A stretch of 64,000 nt of DNA from Kofleriaceae bacterium (GTDB lineage Bacteria; Myxococcota_A; Polyangia; Haliangiales; Haliangiaceae): the NCBI GenBank assembly GCA_050248555.1, contig JBFWSC010000003.1, forward strand, positions 25,724 to 89,723, read 5' to 3'. Positions 20,322 to 24,457 of this stretch are shown here, in pieces (position 1 is the first letter of the stretch; each line of letters starts with the position of its first letter). A model generated the notes under the pieces. It saw only the letters and a list, made by a program, of their open reading frames with translations, did not search any database and was not told where the DNA came from. The position numbers were made by a program, and so were the translations under genes.

Positions 20322-22985
20322 ATGGAAGCTGCCGACGACGACCGTCCCGATCCCGACGCACTCCTCGCGCAAATGAAGGCCGAGGAGACGCGCGCGAACC
20401 GCGCGCGCCTGAAGCTCTTCTTCGGAGCGTCTCCAGGCGTCGGCAAGACCTACACGATGCTCGAGGAAGCGCGGCGACTGCGCCTCGCCGGCGAGGATGT
20501 CGTGATCGGTATCGTCGAGACGCACGGCCGCCCCGAGACCGAGAAGCTCGTCGGGGACCTCCCGCTGATCGCTCGGCGCCAGATCGACCATCGCGGCGTC
20601 CGGCTCACCGAGCTCGACCTCGACGCGGCGATCGCGCGCAAGCCGGGCGTGATCCTCGTCGACGAGCTCGCGCACACGAACGCGCCGGGCAGCAAGCACG
20701 TCAAGCGCTGGCAGGACGTGCTCGAGCTCCTCGATGCAGGGATCGACGTCTACACGACGTTGAACGTCCAGCACCTCGAGAGCCTGGGCGACGTCGTCCA
20801 GCAGATCACGGGCGTCAAGGTGCGCGAGACCGTGCCGGACGCGGTGATCGAACGCGCCGACGAGATCGAGCTGGTCGACATCCCGCCCGAGGAGCTCCTC
20901 GAGAGGCTCGCCGAAGGAAAGGTGTACCTCCCCGATCAGGCGCAGCGCGCCGCGAAGAACTTCTTCCAGCGCGGCAACCTGCTCGCGCTGCGCGAGCTCG
21001 CGCTTCGCCGCACCGCCGAGCGCGTCGACGCCGACGTGCTCGCGTATCGAAAGCAGCAGGGGATCAGCGCGGCGTGGCCGGCGTCCGAGCGGATCCTGGT
21101 CGCCGTCGGACCGAGCCCGGGCTCCGAGCGGCTGATCCGCGCGACGAAGCGAATCGCCGAGGGCCTGCACGCGCAGTGGGTCGCCGCCCACGTCGAGGTG
21201 CTCGGGGCACCGCCGCTGTCCGACAAGGACCGCGAGCGGATCGAGAACCACCTGCGACTCGCCGAGTCGCTCGGCGCGGACATCGTACGGCTCGCGGGCA
21301 AGACGGTCGCCGACGCACTGCTCTCCCACGCGCGCGAGCACAACGTCACGCGCATCGTCGCCGGCAAGCCGACGCACTCGCGCTGGCGAGACCTCGTCCG
21401 CGGCAGCCTCCTCGACACGCTGATCCGTGGATCGGGAGCGATCGAGATCCACGTGATCGCGCCGATCGAAGGCGGTCCACCCTACCGCCCCGCACCGCCG
21501 ACCATGGAAGCGGCGCAGGTCAGCGCGTATCTCTACGCCGCCCTCGCCATCGCGATCGTGACGGTCCTGGGGTTGCTGCTCGAGCCCTACACCGAGCTCG
21601 CGGACATCACGATGCTGTACCTGATCGGCATCGCCGTCGCGGCGATGTTCGGGCGCGGACCGTCGCTCCTGGCCTCCTCGATGGCCGTCGCGGCGTTCGA
21701 CTTCTGCTTCGTCCCGCCGCGCTTCACCTTCGCGGTCTCGGATGCGCGACACCTGCTGACGTTCGCCGTGATGTTCGGCGCGGCGCTGGTGATCAGCACG
21801 CTCACGCTCCGGTTGCGACGACAGGAGCGCGACGCGATCGTGCGCGAGCGGAATACCGCCGCGCTCCTCGCTTTCACGCGCGAGATCGCGGCCGCGACGA
21901 CGACCGGCGACGTCGCCGCCGTCACCGTGAAGCACATCGAGGACGTGTTCCCGGTCGCCGCGTCCGTCCTCGTTCCGGAGGACGACGATCCGGGCGCGCT
22001 GTCGTCGGCGGCGGGCCTCATGCCGCTCGCCGGTCAGGAGCAAGCCGTCGCCCGGTGGGCCTTCGAGCACGGCGAGCCGGCCGGCCTGGGCACCGACACG
22101 TTACCCGGCTCGCGGGTGCTCGCGGTCCCGCTCGTCGCCGGCGAAGAGCAGCCCGGCGTGGGCGTCATCGCCGTCCAGGCGCGGCAGGACCCGCGGCGGC
22201 TCGGTGGTGCATCGCTTCCCATGCTCGAAGCGTTCGCGCGCCAGGCCGGCCTCGCACTCGCGCGCGTGCGCTCCATCCAGGAGGCACAGAGGTCCGCGTT
22301 GCGCGCTCACACCGAGGAGCTGCGCAGCTCGCTGTTGTCAGCGGTCTCGCACGACCTGCGCACGCCGCTCGCCGTGATCACCGGCGCGGCGACGACGCTT
22401 CGCGACGATGGCGCACGACTGGCACCCGCGGCACGCGACGAGCTCCTCGGCTCCATCGTCGAAGACGCGAAGCGCCTGGAGCGCGTGCTGGGCAACCTGC
22501 TGCAGCTCACGCGCGTCGAGAGCGGCCTCAAGCCGAACCGCGAGCAGATCCCGGTCGAGGAGCTCGTCGGTGGGGTGCTCACCCGCCTGGAGGACTCGCT
22601 CGGGGATCGCCCCGTCGTCATCGACGTACCATCCGATCTCGTGATCTCGGTCGATCCGGTGCTGTTCGAACAGGTGTTGATCAACCTCGTCGACAACGCC
22701 TTGAAGCACGGCGCACCGCCGTTCGAGATCTCGGCGAAGCGGACCGCGACCGGTCCCGGCGCCTCGATCGAGATCTCGGTGCGCGATCACGGCGCTGGTG
22801 TTCCGGACGGTCAGGAGACACGCCTGTTCGACAAGTTCGTGCGTGCCTCCACGGCCCCCGGCGCCGGACTCGGCCTCGCCGTCGTGCGCGCGATCGTCGA
22901 AGCGCATGACGGTCAGGTCTCGGTGGAGCGACCGAGCGACGGAGGCGCACGATTCCGCATCGTGCTACCCACGGGGGCGCCATGA
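20322..22985 (+). CDS. kdpD: Sensor histidine kinase KdpD.
   Basis: 887 aa. N-terminal KdpD domain with a Walker A motif (FFGASPGVGKTYTML) and a USP-like region. Four TM helices, a GAF region, HisKA (SHDLRTPLAVI) and HATPase_c (GAGLGLAVVRAIVEAHDG). Confidence 0.9.
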   Translation: MEAADDDRPDPDALLAQMKAEETRANRARLKLFFGASPGVGKTYTMLEEARRLRLAGEDVVIGIVETHGRPETEKLVGDLPLIARRQIDHRGVRLTELDLDAAIARKPGVILVDELAHTNAPGSKHVKRWQDVLELLDAGIDVYTTLNVQHLESLGDVVQQITGVKVRETVPDAVIERADEIELVDIPPEELLERLAEGKVYLPDQAQRAAKNFFQRGNLLALRELALRRTAERVDADVLAYRKQQGISAAWPASERILVAVGPSPGSERLIRATKRIAEGLHAQWVAAHVEVLGAPPLSDKDRERIENHLRLAESLGADIVRLAGKTVADALLSHAREHNVTRIVAGKPTHSRWRDLVRGSLLDTLIRGSGAIEIHVIAPIEGGPPYRPAPPTMEAAQVSAYLYAALAIAIVTVLGLLLEPYTELADITMLYLIGIAVAAMFGRGPSLLASSMAVAAFDFCFVPPRFTFAVSDARHLLTFAVMFGAALVISTLTLRLRRQERDAIVRERNTAALLAFTREIAAATTTGDVAAVTVKHIEDVFPVAASVLVPEDDDPGALSSAAGLMPLAGQEQAVARWAFEHGEPAGLGTDTLPGSRVLAVPLVAGEEQPGVGVIAVQARQDPRRLGGASLPMLEAFARQAGLALARVRSIQEAQRSALRAHTEELRSSLLSAVSHDLRTPLAVITGAATTLRDDGARLAPAARDELLGSIVEDAKRLERVLGNLLQLTRVESGLKPNREQIPVEELVGGVLTRLEDSLGDRPVVIDVPSDLVISVDPVLFEQVLINLVDNALKHGAPPFEISAKRTATGPGASIEISVRDHGAGVPDGQETRLFDKFVRASTAPGAGLGLAVVRAIVEAHDGQVSVERPSDGGARFRIVLPTGAP

Positions 22986-23674
22986 GCTCGACCATCCTTG
23001 TCGTCGACGACGATCTGCACGTGCGCCGCTTCCTGCGCACCGTCGTGACCGGCCACGGCCATACGGTCGTCGAAGCAGGCACCGTCGCCGAAGCGATCGA
23101 CGCGATCGATCGCGTCCACCCGAGCGTCGTGCTCCTGGACCTCGGCCTGCCCGACGGTGACGGACTGCAGGTGCTGCGCGCCCTCCCCGCGGAGACGCGC
23201 CCCCCGATCATCGTGCTCTCCGCGCGCGGCCAGGAAGGCGACAAGGTCGCGGCGCTCGACGCCGGCGCGGAGGACTACCTGACCAAGCCGTTCGGCGCGG
23301 GCGAGTTGCTCGCGCGCATTCGCGTGGTGCTGCGGCGCACCGGTGGGGCGGCCGCACCCGACGTGATCGAAGTCGGTCCGATCAAGATCGATCAGCCACG
23401 TCACTCCGTCACCGTCGGCGGTACCGAGGTCCACCTCACCCCGATCGAGTTCAAGCTGCTTGTCGAGCTCGCCCGCCAACCCGGCCGCGTGCTGACGCAC
23501 CGCCACCTCTTGATCGCGGTGTGGGGGCCGAACGCCGTCGAACAGACGCATTACCTGCGCGTGCACATGGCCGCGCTGCGTCGCAAGGTCGAGGCAGACC
23601 CGGCGCGTCCCCAATGGCTCCTGACCGAGGCAGGCGTGGGTTATCGCCTGCGCGAGCCGGTGCCGGCAGCCTGA
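22982..23674 (+). CDS. kdpE: Response regulator KdpE (OmpR family).
   Basis: Receiver domain with a DDD acidic pocket, the phosphoacceptor D in LLDLGLPDGDG, and a TKP motif. Winged-helix output domain (TPIEFKLL...GVGYRL). Overlaps the kdpD stop. Confidence 0.9.
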   Translation: MSSTILVVDDDLHVRRFLRTVVTGHGHTVVEAGTVAEAIDAIDRVHPSVVLLDLGLPDGDGLQVLRALPAETRPPIIVLSARGQEGDKVAALDAGAEDYLTKPFGAGELLARIRVVLRRTGGAAAPDVIEVGPIKIDQPRHSVTVGGTEVHLTPIEFKLLVELARQPGRVLTHRHLLIAVWGPNAVEQTHYLRVHMAALRRKVEADPARPQWLLTEAGVGYRLREPVPAA

Positions 23675-23725
23675 TGGTGCCTTGACGCGAGCTTCATGCG
23701 GCCTTGATGTCGCGACCGGTATTCG

Positions 23726-24457
23726 GTGGGCATGCCCGGCGACGCCCGGCACGCGAAGGCCCCTCGCTACCTGCGCGCTGCGGCGCGCGGCGAGCTCGTC
23801 GCGGTGATCACGGACAACCCCGAGCTCCAGCGACTGCTCGCGGATGCGCTGGCGTCTCAAGGATTGCGTGCAATCGAGGCCAACGCGCAGACGGTCGGTG
23901 GCGCCATCGAGCGCCTCGGCGCCGTGCTCGTACTTCTCGATCTGGATCGCGGCGACGGCCATCGTCTCCTCGAGCGACTTCGCTCGTCGGACGCGATCAC
24001 ACCGATCTTCGCGTTGTCCAGGCGCGCGAGCGAGGGGGACAAGGTGCTCGCCCTCGACGGCGGCGCCGATGACTACATCACCAAGCCGGTGGCCACGAGC
24101 GAGCTTCTCGCCCGCGTTCGCGTCATCCTCCGCCATCGCAACTCGGTGCACGTCGACGACGCGATCGATGTCGGTCCGATCCGGATCGATCGCGCGCGAC
24201 ACCGTGTCACCGTCTCGGATGTCGAGGTCCATCTCACGCCGCTCGAGTTCAAGCTGTTGTCGGTGCTTGCCGAGCACGTCGATCGCGTGGTGACGCGAGA
24301 GCAACTGCTCCGCCTGGTGTGGGGCAACGGATCGTCGAGCGCACATCACCTGCGCGTGCACATCGCCGCGATCCGCCAGAAGATCGAGCCGCGCCCCGCG
24401 GAGCCCCGCCACCTCGTGACCGTCGTCGGTGTTGGCTATCGCCTGTGCACGAGCTGA
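23726..24457 (+). CDS. Second KdpE-like OmpR-family response regulator with an atypical receiver. The acidic pocket reads TDN instead of DD.
   Basis: Clear paralogue of kdpE in the same orientation (LDLDRGDG, ITKPVATSELLARVRVILR, HLTPLEFKLL...VGVGYRL). The N-terminal acidic residues are replaced (VAVITDNPEL versus VVDDDLHV in KdpE). Confidence 0.7.
   Translation: MGMPGDARHAKAPRYLRAAARGELVAVITDNPELQRLLADALASQGLRAIEANAQTVGGAIERLGAVLVLLDLDRGDGHRLLERLRSSDAITPIFALSRRASEGDKVLALDGGADDYITKPVATSELLARVRVILRHRNSVHVDDAIDVGPIRIDRARHRVTVSDVEVHLTPLEFKLLSVLAEHVDRVVTREQLLRLVWGNGSSSAHHLRVHIAAIRQKIEPRPAEPRHLVTVVGVGYRLCTS

Follow-up and report, generated by a model that had tools for sequence, protein, structure and literature searches.

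KdpD/KdpE is among the best-understood two-component systems, and its regulator KdpE recognizes in Escherichia coli the half-sites TTTATA and TTTACA, which lie 5 bp apart with an invariant TT in common, and needs R193, R200 and T215 for DNA binding. A receiver without any one of the positions DD1, DD2, D, T and K is defined as a pseudo-receiver (Bourret et al. 2025, PMC12632262), and how such receivers are switched is an acknowledged open question (PMC12632262). CmrT, an OmpR-family pseudo-receiver of the Clostridioides difficile CmrRST system, is encoded with a canonical regulator and kinase and is reported to form homodimers and heterodimers; the canonical regulator activates a promoter that also raises the level of CmrT. 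Of the atypical regulators that have been reviewed, CmrT and one other alone are not orphans. The actinomycete GlnR keeps D50, which is not phosphorylated and whose charge contacts with R52 of the beta3-alpha3 loop and with T9 hold the alpha4-beta5-alpha5 homodimer. In Streptomyces, the atypical WhiI heterodimerizes with its paralogue BldM, and genes respond only when both are made. Here we analyse kdpE2, a second kdpE-like gene beside a canonical kdpDE pair in a 64-kb stretch of DNA (64,000 nucleotides, nt; hereafter the window, whose positions serve as coordinates) from a Kofleriaceae bacterium. By the above definition KdpE2 is a predicted pseudo-receiver because its DD1 is Thr, and we believe and doubt in about equal measure that this KdpE paralogue acts as a second-tier regulator of a local potassium (K+) regulon.

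The kdp locus of the window is complete, lies on the plus strand and has the order kdpF-A-B-C-D-kdpE-kdpE2, as judged from the list of open reading frames (ORFs) and Pfam (Table 1). A 4-nt overlap (ATGA) joins the stop of kdpD to the start of the canonical kdpE (kdpE1). From kdpE to kdpE2 the gap is 57 nt if translation begins at ATG 23732; with the alternative start GTG 23726, which would give a protein of 243 amino acids (aa), it is 51 nt. A scan of positions 22700-24700 for consensus sigma-70 promoters and terminators returned nothing, and hence no terminator between the two regulator genes. The guanine-plus-cytosine (GC) content by codon position is gene-like (0.76/0.45/0.83 for kdpE2, 0.79/0.45/0.86 for kdpE), and NCBI has the exact 241-aa protein under the name 'MAG: winged helix-turn-helix domain-containing protein [Kofleriaceae bacterium]'. 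It comprises a basic N-terminal extension (residues 1-21), a receiver (22-137) and a winged-helix DNA-binding domain (144-238). Pfam assigns the OmpR/PhoB-family combination of PF00072 Response_reg (51.5 bits, against 92.3 for KdpE; gathering cut-off 30.2) and PF00486 Trans_reg_C (81.5 bits; cut-off 26.2).

Fold and nearest relatives point to KdpE. The best match among solved structures is E. coli KdpE (4kfc, E = 2.5e-45), at an identity of about 38-39%, and the AlphaFold model (predicted local distance difference test score, pLDDT, 89) has a (beta-alpha)5 fold followed by a winged helix-turn-helix, with low confidence for the 20-residue basic N-terminal extension. The modelled receiver superposes on the KdpE receiver 1zh2 with 1.4 Å over 119 residues, the DNA-binding domain on KdpE 3zq7 with 1.7 Å over 100 residues. 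KdpE NF007820 is also the best NCBIfam match. Its equivalog cut-off of 325 bits is not reached by KdpE2 (166.7), and the cut-off is strict for Myxococcota because the neighbouring canonical KdpE falls short as well (255.9). An earlier sequence-only reading had described an OmpR-type KdpE paralogue with an atypical receiver immediately 3' of kdpE, and had proposed an alignment with the KdpE structure 4KFC. That alignment has now been run, and the description is borne out by the intact ORF behind its 57-nt gap, by two Pfam domains above their cut-offs, by the KdpE matches in structure and NCBIfam, and by the Thr at DD1.

KdpE2 has a family of its own. Among the 200 closest database proteins, clustered at 90% identity, 27 clusters have in common an N-terminal extension that is rich in Arg and closes with G-[ED]-L, the motif [TS]-[DE]-D at the acidic pair and, behind the phospho-Asp, D-[LV]-D-R without a G-L-P. 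We aligned these 27 family members with 169 canonical KdpE sequences. The canonical KdpE of the window has D9, D10, D53, S80, K102, LLDLGLPDGDG and KPF, all present. The phospho-acceptor D53 corresponds to D70 of KdpE2, S80 to S96 and K102 to K118; D70, S96, Y115, K118 and P119 are invariant in 27 of 27 family members, so that KdpE2 is no aspartate-less receiver (ALR). In the triplet T27-D28-N29 DD1 is lost, DD2 (D28) is kept and Asn stands at DD+1. DD1 is Thr in 12 members, Ser in 11, Glu in three and Met in one, and this change is beyond chance, since Thr or Ser in 23 of 27 stands against an acid in 169 of 169 canonical sequences. DD2 is acidic in 24 of the 27. The sequence-only reading, which had noted the retained Asp and Lys/Thr positions correctly, had taken the whole Asp-Asp pair as replaced by Thr-Asp-Asn; the three residues are as it gave them, and the loss is confined to DD1, with the Asn following the pair. 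A revised start codon that would restore the pair, which it had named as a way to overturn its view, does not exist: the triplet lies inside the ORF, with only two in-frame starts 5' of beta-1 (GTG 23726 and ATG 23732), and initiation at the following one, GTG 23804, would remove beta-1.

The pocket is degenerate, as that reading had held, and to a greater extent than it stated, for the Thr is the smallest of the changes. In the beta3-alpha3 loop, D+2 is Asp throughout the family (D72 here; 27/27) and Gly in 169/169 canonical sequences, D+3 is Arg in 18/27 (R73 here) against Leu in 166/169, and the canonical Pro at D+4 is gone from 27/27 together with the gamma-turn (G74 here). D+8, a canonical Gly, is Gly in 18/27 and R78 in KdpE2. 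Ala at T+1 occurs in 168/169 canonical proteins and in only 8/27 family members, while K+2 is Phe in 169/169 of the former and Phe, Ile or Val (20, 4 and 3 members) in the latter. The pocket positions changed in KdpE2 are thus 98-100% invariant across the 169 canonical proteins. A small residue at T+1 leaves the phosphorylation site accessible, and CheY moves toward active conformations when K+2 is Val or Ile. Pseudo-receivers typically also lack the Pro at D+4 and the Gly at D+8, and have a bulky residue at T+1 and one other than Phe at K+2. Two basal members (P0126 and P0130) still have an acidic DD1 and already have the D-x-D loop, which suggests that the loop was altered before DD1. HMMER and MAFFT had suggested a 2-residue deletion inside the beta3-alpha3 loop; we rejected it, as the family loop D-L-D-R-x-D-G is of full length, and the alignment gap is more probably to be placed within alpha-3 or behind it.

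Divergence also affects alpha-1, which docks the kinase and is the fastest-changing part of the family. Its F16 and R18, both 98-100% invariant in canonical KdpE, are replaced in KdpE2 by L35 (variable in the family) and A37 (mostly Cys in the family), and the two proteins of the window are 0.17 identical over alpha-1 and 0.71 over alpha4-beta5-alpha5. With this divergence, and with kdpD overlapping kdpE1 rather than kdpE2, the protein lacks the marks of a cognate partner of KdpD. By its catalytic quintet, its otherwise invariant loop, its coupling to KdpD and the NCBIfam cut-off, KdpE2 fails as a canonical KdpE orthologue.

These observations bear on the possibility that KdpE2 is still phosphorylated, as a second substrate of KdpD or of a short KdpD-like kinase, with altered kinetics, as a branch or a phosphate sink, the Asp at D+2 offsetting the lost DD1. 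The invariant catalytic residues and the mostly acidic DD2 would suit such a receiver, particularly as DD1 has no more than a water-mediated contact with the metal, the kinetics of phosphorylation are known to be tuned by D+2, and Kofleriaceae have extra DUF4118-HisKA kinases with KdpE-like partners beside kup. However, the docking helix is the least conserved part and has lost F16 and R18, the D+4 Pro and gamma-turn are missing from the whole family, T+1 is Arg in KdpE2, no kinase co-varies in position with kdpE2, and the NCBI pipeline names the protein without 'response regulator'. We therefore regard continued phosphorylation as a serious but rather unlikely alternative.

All 200 neighbour-joining bootstraps recover the KdpE2 family as monophyletic; the KdpE2 of the window sits on an ordinary, not a long, branch. 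The 27 members form a deeply branched clade with 48 invariant columns over both domains, and their receivers are not decaying, because identity within the family (0.57) is close to that within canonical KdpE (0.63). The conservation of the family shows KdpE2 to be an intact paralogue that arose in an old duplication, is conserved in a Kofleriaceae lineage and evidently undergoes purifying selection. A decaying duplicate without function is effectively refuted by this conservation: its case would be the Pfam receiver score (51.5 against 92.3 bits) and the loss of several catalytic-site neighbours, but the ORF is intact, codon-position GC is normal, the clade is deep, receiver identity is near the canonical value and the promoter box described below is conserved. 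In a profile search of 1.84 billion representatives clustered at 50% identity, only three proteins of the family (P0004, P0005 and P0015) exceeded the canonical KdpE background, and because of this number we consider the family to be probably small and lineage-restricted. The next match, P0201, was rejected as a member. It is an unrelated tandem fusion of 556 aa from a low-GC organism, in which two KdpE-like regulators are joined and the first site is degenerate ('IIDHN', 'ILALDLPD'). Scans of genome contigs with the family alignment and of metagenome contigs with the protein gave only canonical KdpE-type loci among the matches listed, and a signature scan of 160 loci no new member. Two family members are named by NCBI, both as Kofleriaceae, and the taxonomic breadth of this poorly sampled family rests on these two names and on sequence relatedness.

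kdpE2 appears to have an operator of the kdp type. Comparison of loci yielded candidate boxes, for which the binding protein is inferred from sequence. In front of kdpE2, four repeats phased by 11 bp (CTGATG 23671, TTGACG 23682, TTCATG 23693 and TTGATG 23704, spanning 23671-23709) precede a -10-like TATTCG (23720-23725) that lies 6 nt before the ATG. The 18-mer CTTGACGCGAGCTT[G/C]ATG occurs without mismatch at only two positions in the 64 kb, 15622 and 23681 (0.02 expected), with one more site at 2 mismatches; the copy at 15622 lies 56 nt 5' of the first kdp ORF. A geometric pattern of two phased repeats with TA[T/G] at +16 finds only the same two places (0.01 expected). The looser TTGA-N7-TTGA-N10-12-TA has 3 matches in the window against 0.00 expected and adds sites just 5' of kup and secD, which brings the four box sites (kup, kdpF, kdpE2 and secD) within 10.3 kb. 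They may form a local regulon that includes the low-affinity K+ transporter Kup and, unexpectedly, secDF. The half-site TTGAYG is 6 bp long with a 5-bp spacer and an invariant TT. Between the end of the proximal repeat and the -10-like hexamer are 9-10 nt, which leave no room for a properly spaced -35 element. A box with a -10-like hexamer and no spaced -35 resembles activator-dependent promoters of the PhoB type.

The architecture is conserved. The same box arrangement stands 5' of kdpE2 in all five other loci compared (L001-L005), hence in six of six with the window. It also occurs 5' of kdpF and of the BBP2 porin gene in L001, and 5' of the kup gene of a Kofleriaceae locus whose only KdpE is of the canonical type. 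L002 and L003 have a reverse-facing box 5' of small membrane ORFs, and L004 and L005 phased repeats without the strict -10 spacing. As regards the idea of a leaderless mRNA, the start codon follows the hexamer by 6 nt in the window, L001 and L004, and an ATG at that position is out of frame in L002, L003 and L005.

Gene order likewise ties kdpE2 to K+ transport. It adjoins kdp genes in seven of seven contexts (six others and the window), and this linkage holds despite rearranged gene order and orientation. The usual layout in relatives is kdpD-kdpE, two small opposite-strand ORFs with two transmembrane segments, then kdpE2; in one context kdpE2 is divergent from a BBP2-kdpFABCD cluster. This linkage, together with the gene's own kdp-type operator, upholds the earlier proposal of a role in K+ homeostasis. 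The accompanying proposal of a second input, from turgor or developmental signals for example, found no support, as none of the seven contexts has a dedicated kinase beside kdpE2, and because of the kdp-type box on its promoter kdpE2 would rather be an output or feedback tier downstream of KdpD/KdpE. The roles of phosphate sink or anti-regulator, also named in that reading, may yet apply.

The residues for dimerization and DNA contact are retained. All KdpE dimer residues are present in KdpE2 (I88, L91, A110 and V114; the pairs D97-R111, D92-R113 and E107-R111), and between family and canonical KdpE alpha4-beta5-alpha5 is 0.77 identical, compared with 0.48 for the whole receiver. KdpE2 could accordingly be little active by itself and form heterodimers with KdpE through this face, which would change the activity or the targets of phosphorylated KdpE (KdpE~P), as WhiI does with BldM. 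The conserved salt bridges and hydrophobic patch, the 3-4 phased half-sites per box, which could hold mixed dimers, and the precedent of WhiI, which acts only as a heterodimer with BldM, agree with this proposal; the interface residues are, however, conserved across the OmpR/PhoB family and alone do not predict pairing, and we think it unlikely.

In the DNA-binding domain, KdpE R193, R200 and T215 correspond to R208, R215 and T230 of KdpE2 and are kept in 27, 27 and 26 of the 27 members. The domain carries a family signature of H/Q173R, R174E/D, E216V and H190/Y191 to D/H-H, and the alpha7-alpha8 (transactivation) loop is one residue shorter in the family. H190D and Y191H lie at the start of the recognition helix, E216V in the wing and H173R/R174E in alpha7. 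Such substitutions in the recognition helix, wing and alpha7 might mean that KdpE2 has other DNA targets unrelated to K+ and that its proximity to kdp is historical. Yet the kdp linkage persists in every context through rearrangements, the KdpE-specific R193 is kept along with R200 and T215, and a kdp-type box marks the kdpE2 promoter in all six loci, which makes this explanation very improbable.

We propose the following mechanism for KdpE2 as a second-tier regulator. Phosphorylated KdpD and KdpE, and possibly KdpE2 too, would drive kdpE2 from its own box, with read-through from kdpFABCDE possible in the window. KdpE2 would be independent of Asp phosphorylation, with T27, D70, D72 and R73 forming a metal-free charge network and V120 at K+2 biasing the protein toward a dimer-competent state. 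Since no Asp phosphorylation would be needed, its activity would be set by its concentration. Either by itself or together with KdpE, it would then occupy the TTGA half-sites phased by 11 bp that kdpF, kdpE2, kup and secD have in common. Between amplification and damping of the response, we lean slightly towards delayed damping or competition because the alpha7 helix and the transactivation loop differ from those of KdpE.

Several points weigh against this proposal. The retention of D70, S96, K118 and Y115 in the whole family is stronger than the ~65% typical of pseudo-receivers and would also fit continued phosphorylation, and the invariant Asp at D+2 might replace DD1. With Ala at T+1 in 8/27 members and Phe at K+2 in 20/27, the 'blocked and pre-activated' traits are not universal. 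The boxes may be bound by canonical KdpE only, and the changes in the DNA-binding domain could alter targets or contact with RNA polymerase unpredictably. Transcription starts, the box-binding protein, the phosphorylation state and the oligomeric state are predictions from DNA and protein sequence.

The rewritten pocket might also constitute a new input site instead of a dead one. KdpE2 would then be switched by something other than KdpD, for instance a Ser/Thr kinase acting on T27 or a ligand or metal at the relocated acids. Sitting on the multi-repeat boxes as a homodimer or paired with KdpE~P, it would merge this signal with K+ limitation and share control of kdp, kup and secDF. The basis for this is the hydroxyl at DD1 in 23/27 members, the invariant Asp at D+2, the Arg at D+3 and the absence of Pro at D+4; we rate the idea as improbable.

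Compared with described systems, KdpE2 is best read, by analogy with GlnR, CmrT or WhiI, as an atypical member of the OmpR/PhoB regulators. With E. coli KdpE (4KFC, 4KNY, 1ZH2, 3ZQ7), its closest match in sequence and fold, it shares the two-domain architecture, the alpha4-beta5-alpha5 residues and R193/R200/T215, and the boxes share the direct-repeat operator with 11-bp periodicity and invariant TT. Unlike E. coli KdpE, it is changed at DD1, D+2, D+3, D+4, D+8, T+1, K+2, alpha-1, alpha7 (H/Q173R, R174E) and the wing (E216V), has the shorter alpha7-alpha8 loop and a basic N-terminal extension of ~20 aa, and lacks translational coupling to kdpD; the half-sites read TTGAYG, against TTTAYA in E. 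coli, and the boxes adjoin a -10-like hexamer instead of lying at -72 to -50.

KdpE2 resembles CmrT in adjoining a canonical kinase-regulator pair: kdpD-kdpE-kdpE2 lie on one strand with no terminator and a kdp-type box, which on DNA grounds would imply co-regulation, and activity set by concentration is the model currently favoured for CmrT. The two stand in unrelated lineages with different regulons, and KdpE2, unlike CmrT, keeps the phospho-Asp and has its own box-bearing promoter instead of sharing an operon alone; the homology considered is that at family level. T27, D70 and R73 of KdpE2 recall GlnR (Thr/Ser in 23/27, Asp in 27/27 and Arg in 18/27 of the family), a comparison of sequence positions. 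In contrast to GlnR, an orphan global regulator, KdpE2 has its Arg at D+3, an invariant Asp at D+2 and an acidic DD2. BldM and WhiI differ in having NarL-type output domains, and a KdpE-KdpE2 heterodimer is hypothetical.

The surroundings of the locus add several observations. The two small ORFs between kdpE and kdpE2 in relatives encode ~70 aa ('EELILYGLLVVIGAIPV...' and 'GLRLAFGV...FGGACFVAGLAWLL'), each with two transmembrane segments; Pfam gave no match, homologues looked for in the window were not found, and one may speculate that they feed back on KdpD as MgrB-like peptides. Kofleriaceae also encode additional short kinases that resemble KdpD (DUF4118-HisKA-HATPase) but lack the N-terminal KdpD/Usp domains; they are paired with canonical KdpE-like regulators and adjoin kup or the gene of a Na+/H+ exchanger that includes TrkA_C. 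This suggests an expanded KdpDE-type network for K+ transport in Kofleriaceae, kup included. An orphan GAF-HisKA-HATPase histidine kinase (28391-30178, minus strand) lies 4 kb 3' of kdpE2 without an adjoining response regulator, and a comparable kinase is not conserved beside kdpE2 in the other loci examined.

On the 5' side, the 27-aa ORF before kdpF gave no match in a Pfam search and has counterparts of 30-33 aa at the same position in L003 and L005. A BBP2-type porin gene stands directly 5' of the kdp genes in L001, L003, L005 and the P0008 contig, and none was seen in the window. The spacer between kup and the kdp promoter (14131-15677, 1.5 kb) has a lower GC content of 0.64-0.67 and no recognisable gene. 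Within it, an ORF at 15065-15493 (minus strand, 142 aa) has the motifs 'LPRVVYA' and 'SRIPRAIV' in common with an ORF of L001 (8913-9230, plus strand) beside kdpE2; a Pfam search of the spacer ORF gave no match, and its status as a real gene is uncertain.

Table 1. Features of the kdp-kdpE2 region (window positions) and of related loci (positions within the locus named)
Feature	Position	Strand	Remarks
kup	12163-14130	-	Pfam K_trans + K_trans_C; upstream of kdp locus
TTGA-N7-TTGA box with TA-start hexamer	14181-14207	-	about 50-75 nt 5' of kup
Candidate kdp operon operator TTGACGCGAGC TTGATGAGCGA, then -10-like TATCCA (15650-15655)	15623-15655	+	23 nt 5' of 27-aa ORF
Hydrophobic 27-aa ORF (MLDLIYIVVIVALLVASLWMIRVFDRM)	15678-15761	+	GAGGA ribosome-binding site; just 5' of kdpF
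kdpF	15771-15863	+	Pfam KdpF
kdpA	15860-17626	+	Pfam KdpA
kdpB	about 17623-19725	+	Pfam E1-E2 ATPase
kdpC	19733-20314	+	Pfam KdpC
kdpD	20322-22985	+	Pfam KdpD/Usp/DUF4118/GAF/HisKA/HATPase
Canonical kdpE (KdpE1), 230 aa	22982-23674	+	Pfam Response_reg + Trans_reg_C; full catalytic set
kdpE2 candidate operator and promoter	23671-23725	+	four 11-bp-phased repeats, then -10-like hexamer
kdpE2, 241 aa, predicted pseudo-receiver KdpE paralogue	ATG 23732-24457	+	Pfam, alignment, AlphaFold
KdpE2 codons T27-D28-N29 (acg gac aac)	23810-23818	+	aligned to KdpE D9-D10-D11
KdpE2 codons D70-L-D72-R73-G74-D-G-H-R78	23939-23965	+	phospho-Asp kept, beta3-alpha3 loop rewritten; canonical D-L-G-L-P-D-G-D-G
KdpE2 codons S96-R97	24017-24022	+	T position kept; T+1 Ala to Arg
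KdpE2 codons K118-P119-V120	24083-24091	+	Lys kept; K+2 Phe to Val
Box TTGACCGCTTC TTGACGAACGG, then TAAGCA	24488-24520	+	10 nt 5' of secD ATG
secD + secF	24531-27379 (secD ATG 24531)		downstream of kdpE2; Pfam
Small-ORF pairs of relatives	L002 9289-9719; L003 9042-9272; L004 9335-9788; L005 9205-9632	-	conserved
Short KdpD-like kinases	L166 6923-8711; L167 2440-4505, 6940-8702; P0008 contig; L004 16909-18016		

In our searches of the literature we met no account of a pseudo-receiver paralogue of KdpE linked to kdp, and new here is also the putative kdp-type operator of 11-bp-phased TTGA repeats in front of kdpE2. Even if KdpE2 should prove ordinary, an annotation is corrected, as the Joint Genome Institute (JGI) labels family members 'KdpE' and NCBI 'winged helix-turn-helix domain-containing protein'. 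Such a regulator is unsurprising in principle, and its worth is that of a matched pair accompanied by a defined operator, in a model system. Nature provides here a canonical KdpE and a predicted pseudo-receiver paralogue with shared dimer and DNA-contact residues, the same kinase alongside, and a defined candidate operator at four promoters (kdpF, kdpE2, kup and secD). This pair suits asking what the loss of DD1 and the rewriting of the loop mean for phosphorylation, whether the retained Asp may be structural as in GlnR, and whether a paralogue of this kind may feed back on its parent system.

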